Shown piece by piece: positions 2,708-63,151 of a stretch of DNA of 64,000 nucleotides; positions within the stretch are counted from its first letter, which is position 1, and every line of letters starts with the position of its first letter. The stretch comes from an uncultured Gammaproteobacteria bacterium. Its GTDB lineage: Bacteria > Patescibacteriota > Patescibacteriia > Patescibacteriales > GWC2-42-12. The stretch spans positions 77,079 to 141,078 of the forward strand of contig CAZLKB010000001.1 of NCBI GenBank assembly GCA_964560005.1, read 5' to 3'. The translations under genes were made by a program, and so were the position numbers. Below the pieces are notes generated by a model, which saw nothing but the letters and a program-made list of their open reading frames with translations, did not search any database and was not told the DNA's origin.

Positions 2708-3412
2708 TTAGTTCAGCGACGCGAGAATCTTCTCGGCCGCGGCTCGAGGATCCGGGTCTTCAGTGATCGGTCGGCCGATGACCAGCCAATTGGCGCCGTC
2801 CTGAATCGCCTGTTTCGGCGTGCCCGTTCGCTTCTGGTCTTGCGCCTCCGCTCCGGGCATTCGGATGCCCGGCGTTACCAATTGAATTTGAGCAGGCACT
2901 ATCTTCCGAACTGCCGCCACCTCTCTTGGCGAGCAAATCAAGCCGTCCAGTCCGGCAATAATAGCCAGTTTAGCGAGCCGTTCCACCTGTCCAAGGGGGT
3001 TATTGAAACCGATCGACTCCACTGCTTTGTGATCGAGGCTGGTGAGCATAGTAACGCCCAACACTAGGGGTGGAGGCTTCTCCATCCCCAAGGCTGTGGA
3101 TTGCGCTGCCTGTTTGGCGGCACTCATCATTTCTAGCCCGCCGCTGGCGTGCACGTTGAGCATACCGACGAAGAGCCTGGTCGCGGCTGCTACCGCTTTG
3201 GCCACTGTGTTCGGAATGTCGTGGAACTTCAGGTCCAAAAACAATAGACCCGCACCACCGGTCGCAACGCGAACCACCAAATTCGGTCCAGCGCTGGTAA
3301 ACAGTTCGCTACCGATCTTAAAACCACCCACCACCCCCTTGAGTTTTTCCACTAAGCTCAAGGCCTGTTCTGCTGTAGGCACATCAAGCGCCACTATAAT
3401 TGGATTTTTCAT
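2708..3412 (-). CDS. pyrF: Orotidine 5'-phosphate decarboxylase
   Basis: Motifs MKNPIIVALDV, LDLKFHDIPNTV and LVIGRPI. Start moved to the ATG at 3412 (aa 22 of the track ORF). Confidence 0.9.
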   Translation of the reverse strand: MKNPIIVALDVPTAEQALSLVEKLKGVVGGFKIGSELFTSAGPNLVVRVATGGAGLLFLDLKFHDIPNTVAKAVAAATRLFVGMLNVHASGGLEMMSAAKQAAQSTALGMEKPPPLVLGVTMLTSLDHKAVESIGFNNPLGQVERLAKLAIIAGLDGLICSPREVAAVRKIVPAQIQLVTPGIRMPGAEAQDQKRTGTPKQAIQDGANWLVIGRPITEDPDPRAAAEKILASLN

Positions 3413-3812: not shown

Positions 3813-5438
3813 ATGAAACTAAAGAAAAAACCAGTACAGTTGATCGCCTCCGGTGATCTTCGCTTATCAGCCAACCAGGTCTGCTGGCCGGCTCAAAAAG
3901 CCATGGAAACGGCGCTCTGCATCGCCGTCAGAGACGAGGGCTATCAGGTATTCCGCGCTCATTCCTACGACTCGAAAACCCAGCACGGCTTCATCGCCTC
4001 GCAAAAGCAGGGCATGGAGGTCTTTAAAACGATTGACCCGACCGCGCCGCTCATCGTGGCCGAGGCCGTCTGGCAGTATTCTCACCACGTTCTGGCCGGC
4101 TTGACTACGCACCGTGGCCCGGTCCTCTTGGTCGCCAATTGGTCCGGAATGTGGCCCGGACTAGTCGGTATACTAAATCTGGCCGGCTCGCTTACCAAGG
4201 CCGACGTGAAATATTCCATGCTCTGGAGCGAAGACTTCCAGGACGATTATTTCAAAACCAGGCTCCGGCGCTGGCTCCGGACCGGCCGATGCACGCACGA
4301 CACTAGCCATGTTAGAGAACTGGCTAAGGTCAAACTTTACGCGAAAGCGCAACGGCTTGGCCGCAAGCTCGCCACCGATCTACTGCGTGACAAAGCCATT
4401 ATGGGCGTGTTTGATGAAGGCTGTATGGGCATGTTTAATGCCATCATCCCTGACCATCTGCTCCATGCCGTCGGCGTCTTCAAGGAGCACCTGTCGCAAT
4501 CGGCACTCTACGCCGAGATGCTAACTGTGCACGAAACTGATGCTCAGCATGTCTATGACTGGCTGCTAGCTAAAGGCATGAAGTTCCACACCGGCAGCGA
4601 CCAAGCCACCGAACTGACTGATAGCCAAATCCGTGGTCAGTGCGCCATGTATATCGCCGCAGTCCGCCTTGCCGATGATTTCGGCTGCGCCTGCATCGGC
4701 ATCCAATACCAGCAAGGCCTAAAAGACCTCTGCCCTGCCAGCGACCTGGCCGAAGGCATGCTTAATAACAGCGACCGTCCGCCGGTTAAATCACGCGACG
4801 GCAGTCGGATCCTGTTTGACGGCCAGCCGGTCGTGCACTTTAACGAAGTTGACGAGTGCGCCGGCCTGGACGGTCTCCTGATACAACGCGTACACCTAGC
4901 ACTCGATCAGCCGGTGGAAAACACCCTGCACGATCTGCGCTGGGGTGATACCGACAGATCCGGTGTTACGGGAGGAGCGTACATCTGGGTTTTTGAAATC
5001 AGCGGTTCGGCTCCGCCCGCGCACTTCATCAACGGCTGGGCCGGCGCCGAAGGTTTTCGCCAGCCGCCCATGTATTTCCCTAAAGGCGGCAGCACCTTGC
5101 GCGGCATCTCTAAACCCGGTGCAATCATCTGGTCGCGAATCTTCATCAAAGACGATGCCCTGCAAATGGACATCGGCCGCGGCGAAGTCGCCGAATTACC
5201 GCCCGGAGAAACCGAGCGCCGATGGAATGCCACCACTAAGGAGTGGCCCATCATGCATGCCGTCCTATATGGCATTACCCGTGATCAAATGATGGCCAGA
5301 CACAAGGCCAACCATATCCAAGTGGTCTATGCCACTGACGAAAATAGCGCCGACCAGTGCCTGGCGGTTAAGGCGGCCATGGCGGCCAAGCTGGGAATCA
5401 AAGTTCACGTCTGCGGAACCTTTCCCACGGTCGCATAA
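3813..5438 (+). CDS. L-fucose isomerase family protein
   Basis: 541 aa. The C-terminal half resembles FucI by eye ([40 protein letters not shown]). SD AAAGGA upstream. Leucines are mostly CTG/CTC. Confidence 0.6.
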
Positions 5439-6068: not shown

Positions 6069-6155
6069 GTATTTTTTATCTTCAATTATTCTCTGCTTTT
6101 TGTCAATCATCCCGTTATTCCCATTATACCAAAAATTATGCTATTATAATAACAT

Positions 6156-6239
6156 AATGCGAATACTACAAAAAATATCCAAATACTACAAAAAGTAATT
6201 TATTCGTAGTATTCGCATATCATTTGTAGTATTTGGATT
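6156..6239. repeat. Four-box TACTACAAA module
   Basis: Two direct boxes (GCGAATACTACAAA, TCCAAATACTACAAA) are followed by two inverted boxes in the same order. It ends 9 nt before the ATG at 6248. Confidence 0.6.
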
Positions 6240-6247
6240 ATAACTTT

Positions 6248-9307: not shown

Positions 9308-10201
9308 ATGTTTAACTTTCTCCATACTTTCCACCCCTCCCCAATCCTAGTTAGTCTCGGACCAATCCATGTTTATTGGTATGGTTTTTTTATTGTCCTA
9401 GGAGTCTTAGCCGCCTTAACTGTCGCCATATACCTGGCCAAGTTTTATCAAATCAAAACTGATACCATGATTGACTTAGCTCTTTGGCTAGTGATCGGCG
9501 GCATTTTAGGCGCGCGCCTCTACGACATTTTCTTAGAATGGCCATACTTTTCCTCTCATCCCTTGGATATTCTTAAAATCTGGCAAGGCGGACTGGCAAT
9601 CCACGGCGGTATTATCGGCGGCGCCATTTCTCTATGGTTATTTACCCTGTTAAATCCGACGAAGTCGGCACCAAGTGATTTAACTGGGTTTACTAAAAAA
9701 GATAATCACAATTTCTGGCGGCTAGCCACTATCGCGGTTACCGCCTTGCCTCTGGCCCAAGCTTTCGGCCGCTGGGGCAATTACTTTAACCAGGAGCTGT
9801 TCGGCCGGCCTACAAGTTTGCCTTGGGGCATACCAATTGATCAAATTCACCGTCCCTGGCAATATTTAAATTACGACTATTTCCATCCTGCTTTTCTCTA
9901 TGAATCCATGGGCAATCTGCTTATTTTCATAATTCTTATTTCATTGCAAGTCTGGTTCATAAAAAAACAAAAACTTCTTGATTCTAACTTCTTGATTCTA
10001 ACTTCTTACTTCTTACTCTATTCCCTGCTCCGTTTTTCCACGGAATTTCTCAGAATTGACGCTACTCCGACCGTCTTGGGCTGGCGCTGGCCGCAACTGG
10101 TCAGCTTGTTTATTATTATTTCATGCTTGGCATATTTGGCTGTAAAAATTGGACGGAAAATTAGCTCAAACTCCAGCTCAAACTCCACTCTTGATAAATA
10201 A
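9308..10201 (+). CDS. lgt: Prolipoprotein diacylglyceryl transferase
   Basis: 297 aa. Motifs YWYGFFIVLG, GARLY, WQGGLAIHGG and FGRWGNYFNQELFG. Confidence 0.9.
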   Translation: MFNFLHTFHPSPILVSLGPIHVYWYGFFIVLGVLAALTVAIYLAKFYQIKTDTMIDLALWLVIGGILGARLYDIFLEWPYFSSHPLDILKIWQGGLAIHGGIIGGAISLWLFTLLNPTKSAPSDLTGFTKKDNHNFWRLATIAVTALPLAQAFGRWGNYFNQELFGRPTSLPWGIPIDQIHRPWQYLNYDYFHPAFLYESMGNLLIFIILISLQVWFIKKQKLLDSNFLILTSYFLLYSLLRFSTEFLRIDATPTVLGWRWPQLVSLFIIISCLAYLAVKIGRKISSNSSSNSTLDK

Positions 10202-11895: not shown

Positions 11896-11944
11896 AAATC
11901 TTGTTAAAATACTAAAATTTTGTTAAACTTAAATTAGTATAGGA

Positions 11945-12118
11945 GCCGGGTGAAGTAGTTCATTTTGAGAGGCTCCTCGGTGCTTCTCTCGATGCCGAAA
12001 CAGCTAAACTGGGGCGAAATTGTAGTAATTTTTTGGAATTATCCGATCTGTGTTTGTCGGATAATTCCAAAAAATACCCAAATTTCGTCTAAGCGAAAAA
12101 TAAACTACTTCACCCGGC
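11945..12118 (+). repeat. Structured element, type B, copy B2
   Basis: Arms GCCGGGTGAAGTAGTTCA / TAAACTACTTCACCCGGC. Core TTTTGAGAGGCTCC..internal hairpin GGAATTATCCGA..TCGGATAATTCC..AAATTTCGTCTAAGCGAAAAA. Confidence 0.7.
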
Positions 12119-12165
12119 GAAAATATCATCTGTAAATTAATCTAATAACTATCAAAGTTCCATCT

Positions 12166-12483: not shown

Positions 12484-13830
12484 TTATTTAACAGGGTGAA
12501 CCCTCCTAACTTCCCTTTTAAATAAATTGCCTCTTTCTTTATAATTCTTAAACATACCAAAGCTGGCGCAGGCTGTGGATAATAATACAATATCACCCCT
12601 ACTGGCATTTTCTTTAGCGGTCCTCACGGCATCAACGATATTATCCACTATCTTCATTCTGTCTTTCTTAAACCCAATTTTTAATAGATCTTTTTTTATC
12701 CTTGATGTTGAATCGCCAGCCAGCAAGACAACAAATTTAACTCTATTCACAACCTCTTTAGCCAATTCCTTAAAATCCGCCCCCTTATCGGCTCCGCCCA
12801 GGAATAAAACTATGGGTTGGGTAAACGATTTTAAAGCGATAATGGTTGACTCCGGCGTGGTGGCGAAGCTATCATCATAATATTCAACGCCGTTCAACTC
12901 GCGTACCAATTCCAAGCGATGAGGCAAACCTTTAAAATTAGCCACTGCCTTTTCTATAAACTCCTGTTTTACGCCGATAATTTTCGCCACCTCAATCGCC
13001 GCCGCGACATTTTCCTTATTATGCTCGCCTACCAATTTTGACGGTAATTCTGACTTTTTAAAATACACAATCTTGGCTTTTGTATTTAATTCGTAATCCC
13101 TAATTCCTAATTCATAATTCAAAACCGCCTTTTCTCCGCTCTTTTGGTATTTCACAATATTCATTTTCGCTCCTCGGTATTCTTTTAATGTCCTGTGGTA
13201 ATTCGGATTATTCGGATCGGCCGGCGCTAAATGTTCGGGGTACAAATTAGTGATCACCGCAATCCGCGGGCTCGCCGTCATATCCTCAAGCTGAAAAGAT
13301 GATAACTCTAAGACTACCCAGTCGCTTTTTTTAATTTTATCAATAAAGGCGAACGGCGCCACGCCAATATTACCACCCAGCCAAACTTTTTTGCCGGCTC
13401 GTTTCAATATTTCATAAATCAAACTCGCGGTCGTACCCTTGCCCTTGGTTCCGGTGACGCCGATAATATTTTTAGTCGGGCAAAGATCAAAAAACAATTT
13501 TATAGGACTGGATAATATTGTGCCAGCTTTGATGGTTTGTTTAACGCCCGGGCAATCCATCGGCCAACCCGGAGAACGAAACAAAATATCAAATTTTTCC
13601 AAGCCTTGGTTAAATTTTTTACCTAGCTGCCAAAGAATATATGTCTCTATCATTGCGGGCTCGACCCGCAATCCAGCATTTTCTGTTTTCATCTTCACGC
13701 CCGTTCGCGCGTCGCAAACCGTTATCTCGCATTTCACTTTGTGCTTTAATAAATATCTAACCAAGGCTTGATTCTCAATACCCAGCCCTAAAATTCCAAT
13801 TTTTTTATTATTTAAATTATATAAATTCAT
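12484..13830 (-). CDS. murD: UDP-N-acetylmuramoylalanine--D-glutamate ligase
   Basis: 448 aa. N-terminal Rossmann GILGLGIENQA and P-loop GVTGTKGKGTT, with Mur ligase middle and C-terminal domains. Confidence 0.9.
   Translation of the reverse strand: MNLYNLNNKKIGILGLGIENQALVRYLLKHKVKCEITVCDARTGVKMKTENAGLRVEPAMIETYILWQLGKKFNQGLEKFDILFRSPGWPMDCPGVKQTIKAGTILSSPIKLFFDLCPTKNIIGVTGTKGKGTTASLIYEILKRAGKKVWLGGNIGVAPFAFIDKIKKSDWVVLELSSFQLEDMTASPRIAVITNLYPEHLAPADPNNPNYHRTLKEYRGAKMNIVKYQKSGEKAVLNYELGIRDYELNTKAKIVYFKKSELPSKLVGEHNKENVAAAIEVAKIIGVKQEFIEKAVANFKGLPHRLELVRELNGVEYYDDSFATTPESTIIALKSFTQPIVLFLGGADKGADFKELAKEVVNRVKFVVLLAGDSTSRIKKDLLKIGFKKDRMKIVDNIVDAVRTAKENASRGDIVLLSTACASFGMFKNYKERGNLFKREVRRVHPVK
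13646..13676 (-). repeat. GC-rich hairpin repeat copy inside the murD ORF (in frame)
   Basis: Sense strand GGATTGCGGGTCGAGCCCGCAATGATAG encodes GLRVEPAMI. It is near-identical to the intergenic copy at 29804-29829. Confidence 0.65.
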
Positions 13831-27307: not shown

Positions 27308-27390
27308 ATATAATATTATATCATAATGGTAATGATATAACAATATACATACTAATACGTATACCTGTTCTATCTTTTCAATAAGTCGAG

Positions 27391-27770
27391 TGGAGATGAG
27401 GGGAATTGAACCCCTGTCTAATAAACTTCTTAAAGCATATTTACAGATTAGATCGATTTGTTTTCTCGCTACCGCCGTAAAAACCGAACAAAATCGGCCG
27501 TAGCAGAGCTTATTTTTTAAGATAACCGATAAAGCGATCGATTATTCGAGCCTATGATTTTACACTCGTATCCGGCGTATAGGCGTCAGCCGGGCGAATG
27601 GTTGCGGCTATTAAGCGGCAACAGGGGCAAAGGCCGGCATTTTCCAAGAAAATGTCGCTTTGCTCAATAAGTTTTTGACACTTATTATTTTCGAGCGCGA
27701 TTAAAGTGACGGCTCGAGACGCACTCCTGAATGCTTTAAAAAAATTTTATTATCGATGCCTAGCATCCCC
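27391..27770 (-). ncRNA. ssrA: tmRNA (SsrA)
   Basis: The 5' GGGGATG pairs with the 3' CATCTCC (G3:U70). T-arm AGGGG-TTCAATT-CCCCT. The internal tag frame ends ..PAFAPVAA then TAA TAG (27608-27658). smpB is adjacent. Confidence 0.85.
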
Positions 27771-29803: not shown

Positions 29804-29829
29804 TGTCATTGCGGGCTTAACCCGCAATC
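29804..29829 (-). repeat. GC-rich hairpin repeat, short form (GATTGCGGGTTAAGCCCGCAATGACAAT)
   Basis: GACAAT lies exactly 7 nt upstream of the tig ATG. Confidence 0.6.
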
Positions 29830-29832
29830 TAT

Positions 29833-30150
29833 TTATTTTTTTATCCAATATTTAGTTACCCATTTTTTAATAAACTCCTCTTCTAAATCAATCTTCTGAA
29901 TTTCGGCAATACCCGCCACTATTCCTAATACATCCGATAATTCCTTGGCCATTTCTTTTTTTGATATCTTTGTTGGTAAATATTTTGCCGGCCGGCATCT
30001 TCTATAGTGCAATAAATAAGACTGAACAAATTCTCCGACCTCTTCGGTTAATTTCAATAGTAAATAATCATTTGACAGCTTAATACCGTCTCTTTTTGAA
30101 TTACGCCGAATCACTTTGATCGCCTGTCTTTGCAATTGTTTAATATCCAT
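29833..30150 (-). CDS. MazG-like nucleotide pyrophosphohydrolase
   Basis: 105 aa with the LTEEVGEF and ELSDVLG helices typical of the all-alpha NTP-PPase fold. Confidence 0.55.
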   Translation of the reverse strand: MDIKQLQRQAIKVIRRNSKRDGIKLSNDYLLLKLTEEVGEFVQSYLLHYRRCRPAKYLPTKISKKEMAKELSDVLGIVAGIAEIQKIDLEEEFIKKWVTKYWIKK

Positions 30151-30170
30151 ATATTATTATTTCTATTTTA

Positions 30171-30197
30171 TTGTCATTCCCGCGTAGGCGGGAATCC
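30171..30197 (-). repeat. GC-rich hairpin repeat, short form (GGATTCCCGCCTACGCGGGAATGACAA)
   Basis: Perfect 7-bp stem TTCCCGC/GCGGGAA. It lies 19 nt upstream of the ATG at 30150. Confidence 0.6.
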
Positions 30198-30230
30198 AAG
30201 AGCGTGCCACAGGAATCATTTCATTGTCTT

Positions 30231-31021: not shown

Positions 31022-31074
31022 GGATTGCGGGTCCCATACCTACCGGCAGGCAGGAAGCCCGCAATGACAAAAAA
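31022..31074 (+). repeat. GC-rich hairpin repeat (GGATTGCGGG..CCCGCAATGACAAAAAA)
   Basis: Plus-strand orientation, in tandem with the next copy. Confidence 0.55.
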
Positions 31075-31077
31075 TTC

Positions 31078-31132
31078 TGGATTCCCGCCTTCCCTCGGCA
31101 GGCTCGGGACAGGTCGCGGGAATGACAAAAAA
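31078..31132 (+). repeat. GC-rich hairpin repeat, long form (GGATTCCCGCC..GCGGGAATGACAAAAAA)
   Basis: Ends 10 nt before the 5' arm of element A2. Confidence 0.55.
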
Positions 31133-34887: not shown

Positions 34888-34930
34888 ATTGTTTTGATAA
34901 TTTATTAATTTATTACTCAACTTATTATAT

Positions 34931-35008
34931 AATCCAAATACTACAAAAATTATCCGAATATTACAAATACTTTTTGTAGTATTTGAATAATTTTTGTAGT
35001 ATTCGCAT
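34931..35008. repeat. Four-box TACTACAAA module
   Basis: TCCAAATACTAC, CCGAATATTAC, GTAGTATTTGA, GTAGTATTCGC. It lies 44 nt upstream of the nusA ATG. Confidence 0.6.
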
Positions 35009-36005: not shown

Positions 36006-36148
36006 GGCAATCGGGGGAAAATTTGTTTTGAGCGCATACAAAATTGTATTATTTTTTCTTAAAATTATCCAGACCAATTTAATAAAATTTTAAGAAAAAA
36101 TACACAAATTTTGTCGTAAGCGAAAAACAATTTTTTCCACCGATTGTC
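36006..36148 (+). repeat. Structured element, type B, copy B3
   Basis: Arms GGCAATCGGGGGAAAATTTG / CAATTTTTTCCACCGATTGTC. Core TTTTGAGCGCATACAAAATTGTA..ACAAATTTTGTCGTAAGCGAAAAA. Confidence 0.7.
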
Positions 36149-37193: not shown

Positions 37194-37339
37194 GGCATGG
37201 GGAGGGCGGGCATTTTAAGTGAATACAAAATTGTATTATTTTTTTATTAAAATTGCTCATAATATAAATATATAGACAATTTTAATAAAAAAATACTCAA
37301 ATTTTGTCCTGAACGAAAAATGCCCGCCCTTCCCATGCC
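37194..37339 (+). repeat. Structured element, type B, copy B4
   Basis: Arms GGCATGGGGAGGGCGGGCA / TGCCCGCCCTTCCCATGCC. Core TTTTAAGTGAATACAAAATTGTA..CAAATTTTGTCCTGAACGAAAAA. An orphan 3' core follows at 37340-37364. Confidence 0.7.
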
Positions 37340-60818: not shown

Positions 60819-60831
60819 ATAATCTATCGCC

Positions 60832-60856
60832 GTCATCCCCGCGAAAGCGGGGATCC
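60832..60856 (-). repeat. GC-rich hairpin repeat, short form (GGATCCCCGCTTTCGCGGGGATGAC)
   Basis: 7-bp stem TCCCCGC/GCGGGGA. Overlaps the longer track ORF start. Confidence 0.55.
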
Positions 60857-60960
60857 AGAAATGCTTAATTACGAAAAACCCGCCCTGCTTCGAGCGGATC
60901 CGATAAATTTAACATTATTAAATTTATTTTCTTTGCTCGAAGAATAACTATATAAGTTAG

Positions 60961-61052
60961 TTATCAGCGTTCTGGCTTGTTCCCCCACCATCTTGGTGAA
61001 GGACATTACAGTTGCGGCACAGCGCCGGGTTTACACCGGACTTTCCTGATAA
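60961..61052 (-). promoter_or_regulatory. Cobalamin riboswitch-like aptamer (compact form)
   Basis: Minus strand: P1 TTATCAG/CTGATAA. Core GGAAAGTCCGGTGTAAACCCGGCGCTGTGCCGCAACTGTAA and B12-box-like AAGCCAGAACGCTG. Confidence 0.7.
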
Positions 61053-61068
61053 CTATTGTTGTTTCTAT

Positions 61069-61096
61069 ATTATATAACTTTTGTAGAAAGAGTCAA
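61069..61096 (-). promoter_or_regulatory. Canonical sigma70-type promoter for the riboswitch operon
   Basis: On the minus strand: TTGACT (rc 61091-61096), 16 nt, TATAAT (rc 61069-61074). The predicted start is about 10 nt before P1. Confidence 0.5.
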
Positions 61097-63050: not shown

Positions 63051-63056
63051 CAATAT

Positions 63057-63143
63057 AATCCAAATACTACAAAAAGTACGCGAATACTACAAATGTTTTA
63101 GAATTATTTCGTAGTATTTGGATATAATTTGTAGTATTCGCAT
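63057..63143. repeat. Four-box TACTACAAA module
   Basis: ATCCAAATACTACA, GCGAATACTACAAAT, CGTAGTATTTGGAT, ATTTGTAGTATTCGC. It ends 9 nt before the ATG at 63152. Confidence 0.6.
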
Positions 63144-63151
63144 TATAATAT

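Follow-up and report, generated by a model that had tools for sequence, protein, structure and literature searches.

A probable CGTC-type REP-like hairpin lies in frame in murD of an uncultured Patescibacterium

Results

The murD hairpin

We report here that murD, an essential gene of the cell wall, in an uncultured bacterium of the Patescibacteria (Candidate Phyla Radiation, CPR) carries in frame a short GC-rich hairpin, which is probably a CGTC-type repetitive extragenic palindrome (REP), also related to the SRM motifs, lodged in a permissive connector of the MurD protein. The window, i.e. the whole stretch that was analysed, comprises 64,000 nucleotides (contig CAZLKB010000001.1, positions 77,079 to 141,078), and positions are counted from its first letter. 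An earlier note on this DNA had described a REP-like hairpin in the murD sense strand encoding GLRVEPAMI, a description borne out by the sequence at 13648-13675. The parts of the element and its host gene are as follows.

12484-13830, minus strand: murD, an intact open reading frame (ORF) of 448 aa for UDP-N-acetylmuramoyl-L-alanine--D-glutamate ligase; the hairpin falls within the connector that joins beta2 to beta3 in its N-terminal Rossmann-like domain
13648-13675, plus strand, antisense to murD: intragenic CGTC-type REP/SRM-like hairpin, whose nucleotides differ from those of orthologues in loop and tag only, with the same sub-family in metagenomes
13648-13651: degenerate tag TATC
13652-13659: left arm ATTGCGGG
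13660-13664: loop CTCGA (5 nt)
13665-13672: right arm CCCGCAAT, forming an 8-bp stem with the left arm
13673-13675: tail CCA

On the minus strand the codons GCT GGA TTG CGG GTC GAG CCC GCA ATG ATA GAG give A-G-L-R-V-E-P-A-M-I-E, MurD residues 52-62, and the hairpin itself encodes GLRVEPAMI, residues 53-61. The stem ATTGCGGG/CCCGCAAT is perfect over 8 bp and its first two pairs are A-T, as in the definition of CGTC-tagged REPs. The tag TATC is one change away from TGTC, with ATC in place of GTC; the C directly 3' of the palindrome is present at 13673, and the upstream triplet, ATC in the window, is GTC in orthologues. Written as a single strand, the GTC-tagged form of the hairpin is GTCATTGCGGGCTTGACCCGCAATCC, of which the window copy is the ATC/CTCGA variant. 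The hairpin is also the most stable 31-nt local fold of the murD mRNA (-14.7 kcal/mol vs a mean of -2.8, sd 2.8), and all of the ten best 31-nt folding windows of this mRNA overlap it (10/10). Among the perfect GC-rich hairpins of the window (n=15), five lie in coding sequence and only the one in murD belongs to this repeat family. Rfam has no family at the murD hairpin.

The repeat family in the window

A family hairpin was defined structurally as GTC, a perfect stem of at least 7 bp and C. By this definition the window contains five intact copies besides the murD copy, against 0.24 (maximum 2) in the control of 100 dinucleotide shuffles. Besides the copy upstream of tig, a script for ATT followed by a 5-nt GC-rich stem and its closing AAT gave three further hairpins (30176, 31024 and 31081), and the published SRM motif gave a fourth at 60831-60858.

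29804-29831, plus strand, core 29805-29829: intergenic copy TGTC-ATTGCGGG-CTTAA-CCCGCAAT-CTA, stem identical to the murD copy, 5-nt loop
30172-30198, plus strand: intergenic copy of the CGTC-1/NTS type, TGTC-ATTCCCGC-GTAG-GCGGGAAT-CCA, 4-nt loop
31023-31068, minus strand: long-loop copy GTC-ATTGCGGG-26 nt-CCCGCAAT-C, intergenic between a methyltransferase gene and an H+-PPase gene
31080-31126, minus strand: long-loop copy GTC-ATTCCCGC-27 nt-GCGGGAAT-C, in tandem with the 31023-31068 copy
60831-60858, plus strand: copy CGTC-ATCCCCGC-GAAA-GCGGGGAT-CCAG, 4-nt loop, in the 5' untranslated region between an AdoCbl riboswitch and a DUF4430 gene
29833-30150, minus strand: MazG-like ORF of 105 aa (Pfam MazG, E 2.5e-4, just under the cut-off), between the same-orientation family hairpins at 29805 and 30173

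The resemblance of the murD hairpin to the intergenic copy is not chance, because the exact pattern ATTGCGGG-N5-CCCGCAAT occurs only twice in the window, in murD and upstream of tig, with 0.49 matches expected even when three mismatches are allowed, and because the structural definition gives 5 copies vs 0.24. The two copies had been said to differ only in loop and tail; their stems are indeed identical, and two of the five loop bases and the flanks differ. The copy at 29805-29829 is upstream of tig, 10 nt from its start codon (29794), and follows the stop codon of ORF 29833-30150 by 4 nt; that at 30172-30198 is identical over 28 nt, loop included, to the element found in murD of a relative (P0019/L091).

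Across the window family the flanks are kept, with (T/C)GTC upstream and CCA downstream (tail CTA at the 29805 copy), and the stems alternate between GCGGG and CCCGC with pairing retained. The murD copy is the only member within a gene in the window, and the only one with GTC changed to ATC. The loops of 26-27 nt at 31023 and 31080 are atypical for CGTC-tagged REPs; long-loop forms also occur within MurD of the relatives P0028 and P0035, as judged at the protein level. The site at 60831-60858 is the only one in the window to match the published degenerate SRM motif exactly.

Some features beside these copies are recorded separately. The arrangement at 29805-30196 looks like 'repeat-gene-repeat' without a nuclease gene, and the enclosed ORF 29833-30150 was rejected as an Ssn/GIY-YIG gene, being weakly MazG-like. 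The AdoCbl (B12) riboswitch (Rfam RF01482, 52.4 bits, 60919-61072, minus strand) is upstream of the DUF4430 gene, with the family hairpin between the two. The tag of that hairpin, read on the minus strand as ATGAC, gives the first in-frame ATG, and ORF calling prepends 'MTAIDY' to the likely start MKVKNL.

Conservation, decay and variants in orthologues

The murD DNA was compared in 43 loci from species-representative genomes of the clade (>=50% identity) and in eleven database relatives. The nearest MurD proteins, with the Pfam domains MurD-like_N, Mur_ligase_M and Mur_ligase_C, belong to Patescibacteria (Kuenenbacteria/Falkowbacteria neighbourhood) and are at most 73% identical. The placement of the hairpin between ..ITVCDAR and ..FDILFRSPGWP, given in the earlier note together with the length variability of this MurD region, was confirmed on both counts (MurD proteins of 422-503 aa).

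An identical stretch of 27 nt, GGA TTG CGG GTC AAG CCC GCA ATG ACA, is found in L083, L084, L087, L088 and L089, in which MurD is 64-72% identical and the tags of the murD copies are GTC preceded by T or C. Codons were compared among six sequences with an intact GCGGG hairpin, counting same-residue pairs in the nine hairpin codons: 110/110 pairs use the same codon, vs 56% (2601/4614) in the rest of murD, which makes the hairpin the top 9-codon window of the gene. Relatives that encode the same peptide with divergent codons had been named beforehand as evidence that would speak against a repeat, and the opposite was seen. Moreover, relatives encoding GLRVKPAMT carry intergenic family copies in the same loci, and relatives without the hairpin are also without the peptide. 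It is the nucleotide sequence of the murD hairpin that is conserved.

Other orthologues carry altered forms. L081 and L003 read GGA TCC CGG GTC AAG CCC GGG ATG AC, with four substitutions and a stem that is still perfect; the stem is A:T-compensated in L086 and broken in L085. The site of L012, TGGATTCCCGC-TTTC-GCGGGAATGACAAAAAAG, holds the other stem variant of the window, and L016 and L030 have two elements each, in opposite orientation. A short form of the site, GAA TTG CCG GTT, is present in L001, L002, L005 and L006; in L005 it matches the left arm GGA TTG CGG GTC at 9/12 positions, which is only suggestive that the short form may be a deletion remnant of the hairpin.

Placement in the MurD protein

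Alignment of MurD orthologues and mapping onto structures, as proposed in the earlier note, place the segment in the length-variable beta2-beta3 connector, at a site occupied by discrete repeat classes. All domains and the invariant Mur-ligase motifs are intact in the 448-aa protein. In an AlphaFold model built from a 60-sequence alignment (pLDDT 83.7), confidence is lowest over residues 51-60 (mean 49), which lie between helices predicted at 45-51 and 58-64. MurD entries of the PDB match with E values of 1e-56 to 1e-41, and the net gain over native-type relatives and solved MurD structures is about 5-7 residues. Since solved structures (3LK7, 7SY9) need gaps of just 3-7 residues to align across the site, the repeat-derived peptide replaces most of the connector running from beta2, which ends in a D-x-R motif, to beta3, and does not form a large extra loop. 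In the E. coli enzyme, Asp35, Thr36 and Arg37 form a loop in contact with the UDP part of the substrate; the residues encoded by the hairpin would start about ten positions past R42, which we take to be the equivalent of Arg37. As in the Rickettsia cases, an in-frame repeat sits in an intact gene at a surface or loop position, here a low-confidence connector segment aligned to the connector of PDB MurD.

Turnover and recombination at the site

Between ...CEITVCDxR and WQLGK... the alignment falls into discrete classes. Some contain N[AT]GLRV[KE]PAMT, as in the window, GTGSRVKPGMT or WIPAxAGMT, and others ...RRLLR..ARND, IHELPLRKN-type sequences, tandem combinations or the short form xEIKNKLPV; the native-looking form of the wider clade is RSKKELGEKYxELKKxKNIxWQLG. 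Palindromes at the site were verified in DNA for 9/43 species-representative loci, and the site holds at least five palindrome types plus tandem arrays. In a neighbour-joining tree built from MurD after masking of the site, these classes are thoroughly mixed; its deep branches are unsupported, so close pairs were relied on.

One such pair, P0013 and P0019, is 92.9% identical over all aligned positions and about 99% outside two short patches. The site reads GATTGCTTCG...CTCGCAATGACA in P0013, and in P0019 TGGATTCCCGCCTACGCGGGAATGACAAAG plus a duplicated right arm, the first 28 nt being those of window copy 30172-30198, loop included. The ~3 kb of shared contig show about 10 differences, vs about 56 mismatches and several indels in a ~400-nt patch in 5' murD that includes the hairpin site as well as a second site with a palindrome, directly following SPGWP. 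This patch has the signature of an imported recombination tract, and alleles of the site are exchanged through homologous recombination. At the second site (L090 ~1270-1330, L091 ~370-420), the variable patch holds the palindrome CCCCCTTTGATAAAGGGGG, which encodes P-L-I-K-G and differs in length between near-isogenic strains.

At two MurD sites elsewhere, L084 and L006 (84.5% protein identity) offer clean comparisons of filled and empty states. One of them, past the P-loop helix, holds in L084 an inverted doublet of 63 nt, GTCATTCCCGCGAAGGCGGGAATCCAG-AAT-TCTGGATTCCGGGTCAAGACCGGAATGAC (21 codons), which L006 lacks; the other, following CPGI, holds a 34-codon doublet in L084. Overall, MurD of L084 (10001-11479) has three separate repeat insertions, all absent or reduced in L006 (10001-11311). 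As a side observation, both murD genes contain a low-complexity stretch, SIFNFQFSIFK (TCAATTTTCAATTTTCAATTTTC...), of variable length.

In other genera the same MurD site bears unrelated perfect palindromes: TTTTGCGGGAACGCGCCATGGCGCGTTCCCGCAAAA in L022 (~4219-4254), GTAGAGGCGCATAATTATGCGTCTCTAC in L028 (~10133-10160) and CAAATTTTTGAAGGCGAACAAACGTTTGTCCGCCTTCAAAGATTTG in L013 (~3060-3105), with which L014 was grouped. The L028 palindrome GTAGAGGCGCATAATTATGCGTCTCTAC starts with GTAG and may be a GTAG-type REP. A census of 844 kb of clade DNA gave 44 intact elements, mostly intergenic, those inside ORFs being in murD and in one further gene; L005, L011, L019, L032 and L084 contain inverted doublets spaced 30-50 nt apart. 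The MurD beta2-beta3 connector is a hot spot for several palindrome families, turned over by recombination.

Metagenome distribution and search for a partner gene

A metagenome scan for GTCATTGCGGG-N5-CCCGCAATCC found at least 120 stretches, and 80 loci were fetched. Among the matches listed, contigs with the hairpin range from 33 to 71% GC and the same 26-mer, including its CTCGA loop variant, recurs in many unrelated organisms; the loop is CTTGA in 65/93 copies and CTCGA, as in the window, in 10/93. Because these ten metagenome copies share it, the CTCGA loop of the window copy is a family variant and not a sign of decay. Two loci among the 80, L150 and L126, have the sub-family on both sides of an ORF of ~100 aa for a single-domain, PF01541-only GIY-YIG protein, and this arrangement appears to be that of the published Ssn systems.

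A partner gene was also sought closer to murD. A GIY-YIG motif search of the ORFs found none in the window, and no nuclease or transposase was detected when 20 small ORFs of the window were scanned against Pfam, with no Y1 transposase among the ORFs scanned. In tblastn searches of the CPR DNA examined, the two hairpin-flanked GIY-YIG proteins gave only weak matches, to tRNA-linked genes, and the ORFs between hairpin pairs in CPR loci encode ordinary membrane or unknown proteins, with no partner candidate. Small single-domain GIY-YIG genes were observed directly after a tRNA gene in L011 (1-570), L021 (5100-5600) and L025 (1700-2200), with a duplicated tRNA 3' half following in L011. They were rejected as partners, because duplicated tRNA 3' halves surround them and no family hairpins flank them; they resemble miniature mobile elements that target tRNAs, with no relation to the hairpin family.

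Other features of the window

A perfect 19-bp inverted repeat at 12028-12075, considered as a second in-frame palindrome, was rejected as intergenic. This repeat, ATTTTTTGGAATTATCCGA ... TCGGATAATTCCAAAAAAT, is nested in a larger one, CCGGGTGAAGTAGTT ... AACTACTTCACCCGG (11935-12125), in the intergenic stretch that separates holA from a divergently oriented Zn-ribbon (LysW-like) gene, and the region 11935-12125 has no Rfam match above noise. Two other AT-rich inverted-repeat families, ATAATCCAAATACTACAAA... and ACAAAATTGTATTATTTTTT..., are intergenic at 6154-6241, 34929-34991 and 63054-63147, and also at 36038-36114 and 37225-37307. Rfam further identifies a tmRNA gene at 27388-27770 (118 bits) and seven tRNAs, all on the minus strand (5987, 17391, 21333, 26610, 26751, 57173 and 61101). 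The genes of the window are mostly on the minus strand, and GC skew is consistently negative.

Discussion

CGTC-tagged REPs have an unpaired CGTC or TGTC tag (the CCTC variant is accepted), a stem of 8-9 bp that opens with two A-T pairs, a loop of 4 nt (family 1) or 5 nt (families 2-4) and a tail that is mostly CCA (PMC3733652). They form the families CGTC-1 to -4, are frequently dimeric and mainly intergenic, and have no dedicated transposase (Di Nocera, De Gregorio and Rocco 2013, BMC Genomics 14:522, PMC3733652). CGTC-1 corresponds to Neisseria dRS3 and to RPE-6 of R. conorii, and CGTC-4 to RPE-4 (PMC3733652). The repeats of the present clade share with them the (C/T)GTC tag, the 8-bp stem opening with two A-T pairs, the loop of 4 or 5 nt and the CCA tail, and the murD copy fits except for its tag. 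They are likewise mostly intergenic near gene ends, with inverted doublets and some intragenic copies. In several species, CGTC-tagged REPs lie wholly inside ORFs and contribute about 9-30 residues, with peptides such as WMPGTRPGMT and VIPGLDPGIH...DGRVKPGHD in the supplementary data (PMC3733652), which resemble WIPAxAGMT, GLRVKPAMT and VIPAKAGI of this clade. In-frame intragenic CGTC-REPs are thus already known; however, Patescibacteria/CPR are outside the five phyla of that study, murD is not in its intragenic list, and the reuse of one essential-gene site by several element types with allele exchange is not described there (PMC3733652). The label 'REP-like' given in the earlier note was therefore right, the element fitting the CGTC-tagged REP definition (PMC3733652) and carrying SRM flanks (PMC11893778).

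The second relationship is with the Ssn system of Neisseria, which trims incoming transforming DNA (Nat Commun 2025;16:2388, PMC11893778). The 28-nt NTS consensus CGTCATTCCCGCGMAVGCGGGAATCYRG, its 5-nt-loop variant and Ssn-related motifs are bound and cut, as single-stranded DNA only, by small single-domain GIY-YIG nucleases (cd10448), and copies of the motif usually border the ssn genes that encode them; binding depends critically on the C that follows the palindrome, and cleavage on the three nucleotides upstream (PMC11893778). Window copy 30172-30198 and many copies of relatives are in essence the NTS core GTCATTCCCGCG-MAV-GCGGGAATC, and many intergenic copies of the loci examined are this very core (e.g. 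GTCATTCCCGCGCAGGCGGGAATC in L005 and L083). An oriented GTC flank is found upstream and a C follows the palindrome, the 5-nt-loop form parallels NTSvar, and there is sequence mosaicism around the repeats. The murD-type sub-family brackets small GIY-YIG genes in the metagenomic loci L126 and L150, like NTS-ssnA-NTS. In contrast to Neisseria, no ssn gene was found in the DNA of this lineage that was examined, and the text of PMC11893778 makes no mention of in-frame intragenic copies or of Patescibacteria.

The analogy with Rickettsia, and the suggestion that the same phenomenon occurs in this lineage, are supported. Indeed, the analogy amounts to a family relationship, because the element fits the CGTC-tagged REP definition and RPE-4 and RPE-6 belong to that group in the literature. 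RPE-1, described by Ogata and colleagues around 2000, is reportedly a palindromic repeat found in frame in functional, often essential genes, where it is surface-exposed and tolerated; it is said to span about 100-150 bp or 30-50 residues, not to be a simple tagged hairpin, and RPE copies are said to be ancient and to decay with their host genes. RPE-1 and the elements studied here therefore have in common the in-frame, protein-tolerated insertion of palindromic repeats in essential genes, but RPE-1 is longer, whereas the cores seen here are nucleotide-identical across diverged orthologues and turn over rapidly.

Our preferred explanation, which we consider probable, is that a CGTC-type REP/SRM-like element is lodged in frame in the permissive MurD connector. 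The murD copy would be a tolerated passenger in a structurally permissive loop, and its survival would be aided by a scarcity of stop codons, the element being open in 4-5 of six frames depending on the loop; three of these open reading frames are actually seen in genes. What keeps the intact core uniform would be either recent acquisition or conversion from other copies, or a constraint at the DNA level. Repeated renewal and loss are indicated by the perfect cores in diverged genes, the compensated variants that match the family, the copies that are decayed or possibly half-deleted and the recombination tract, taken together. We infer that neither a need of MurD for the peptide nor neutral vertical descent explains the uniformity of the core. 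More tentatively, the family may be recognised as a single-stranded DNA hairpin by a small GIY-YIG nuclease of the Ssn type, as shown for NTS in Neisseria, which is somewhat less probable than not given the literature and loci L126 and L150. With its ATC tag, the window copy may then be a weaker cleavage substrate.

Several observations weigh against this explanation. No GIY-YIG/Ssn, RAYT or other partner gene was found in the 64-kb window, nor beside hairpins in ~0.8 Mb of DNA from relatives. Neither the murD copy nor the GCGGG-stem sub-family matches the SRM regular expression as published, and the murD tag is TATC, not TGTC or CGTC. Read against the degenerate motif HGTCWYN(0-2)YYVSBRHN(0-5)WNVSBRGN(0-2)RNCYNB (PMC11893778), the murD copy fails at HGTC (ATC) and the GCGGG stems at YY, while the 30173 copy misses the last base only. 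Among the orthologues, none was found with a truly empty site 1 and otherwise identical flanks, the original insertion being deduced from family identity. Finally, selection on the hairpin itself would likewise be consistent with the perfect codon conservation and the compensatory changes.

That last point leads to the main competing explanation, which we regard as improbable, namely that the hairpin is a selected cis-element of murD, an mRNA or DNA structure tuning translation, co-translational folding, mRNA stability or transcription, with the peptide secondary. It would account for the hairpin being the strongest local structure in the murD mRNA, for the complete codon identity (110/110) across diverged orthologues, and for stem compensation, complete in L081 and L003 and by A:T pairing in L086. 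In L022, L028 and L013/L014, in addition, perfect palindromes of unrelated sequence occupy this site, as if any hairpin were wanted there. However, many relatives are hairpin-free, with the native-type KKELxEKYxELKKxKNI or the short EIKNKLPV, and some copies are decaying (L085). Moreover, elements occur within genes in both orientations and in three or more reading frames, most copies of the sequence are intergenic both here and in organisms of 33-71% GC, and near-isogenic strains bear entirely different elements.

The other two alternatives are less likely than a cis-element. A classical REP/REPIN moved by a RAYT (an IS200/IS605-type Y1 transposase), as in E. coli and Pseudomonas and with no link to GIY-YIG proteins, would explain the generally REP-like architecture of a short GC-rich hairpin with an oriented unpaired tag, the high copy number and the REPIN-like inverted doublets 30-50 nt apart in relatives. 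Yet the tag is (C/T)GTC and not GTAG, and neither the literature, in which CGTC repeats show no association with tyrosine transposase genes (PMC3733652), nor the scanned ORFs of the window, which include no Y1 transposase, provide a RAYT; with this sub-family flanking GIY-YIG genes in L126 and L150, we find such a mechanism very hard to credit. That native MurD coding sequence resembles the repeat by chance or convergence is effectively refuted: the segment is only about 5-7 residues longer than the connector of native-type relatives and solved structures, but 16/16 stem bases match the intergenic copy, loop length and tail fit the family, the same 26-mer including the CTCGA variant is present in unrelated metagenomic contigs, and orthologues differ at the site by whole elements and not by point substitutions.

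Starting again from a tolerated REP/SRM-like passenger, one may ask whether the intragenic copies do anything. It is conceivable, although we think it unlikely, that intragenic CGTC/SRM hairpins are active sites for an Ssn-type or other hairpin-recognising enzyme and seed or delimit short recombination tracts in these probably competent, DNA-scavenging ultra-small bacteria. If true, permissive loops of essential genes like murD would be cassette-like hot spots with continual allele exchange, and this would account for the nucleotide-perfect cores, the interspersed tree classes and the 400-nt mosaic tract.

In the full-text literature, we found no description of intragenic CGTC-REPs for CPR/Patescibacteria. 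What is new here is the phylum, the clustering of several palindrome families at a single connector in an essential enzyme, the nucleotide uniformity across diverged orthologues and the direct evidence for allele exchange. Intragenic CGTC-type repeats, so far mainly a matter of Proteobacteria and best known from Rickettsia, are thereby extended to Patescibacteria, and the repeats in CPR are tied by sequence to the NTS/SRM-Ssn system. For annotation, peptides such as GLRVKPAMT, WIPAxAGMT, VIPAKAGI and ...ARND in CPR proteins should be read as repeat-derived and not as lineage-specific protein features, and part of the length variation among CPR orthologues stems from repeats. The murD copies could also mark recombination at the strain level. 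To conclude, the MurD beta2-beta3 connector, with its many independent fillings, decay states and a recombination tract, offers a natural experiment on how selfish hairpins are tolerated, homogenised and lost in an essential enzyme.

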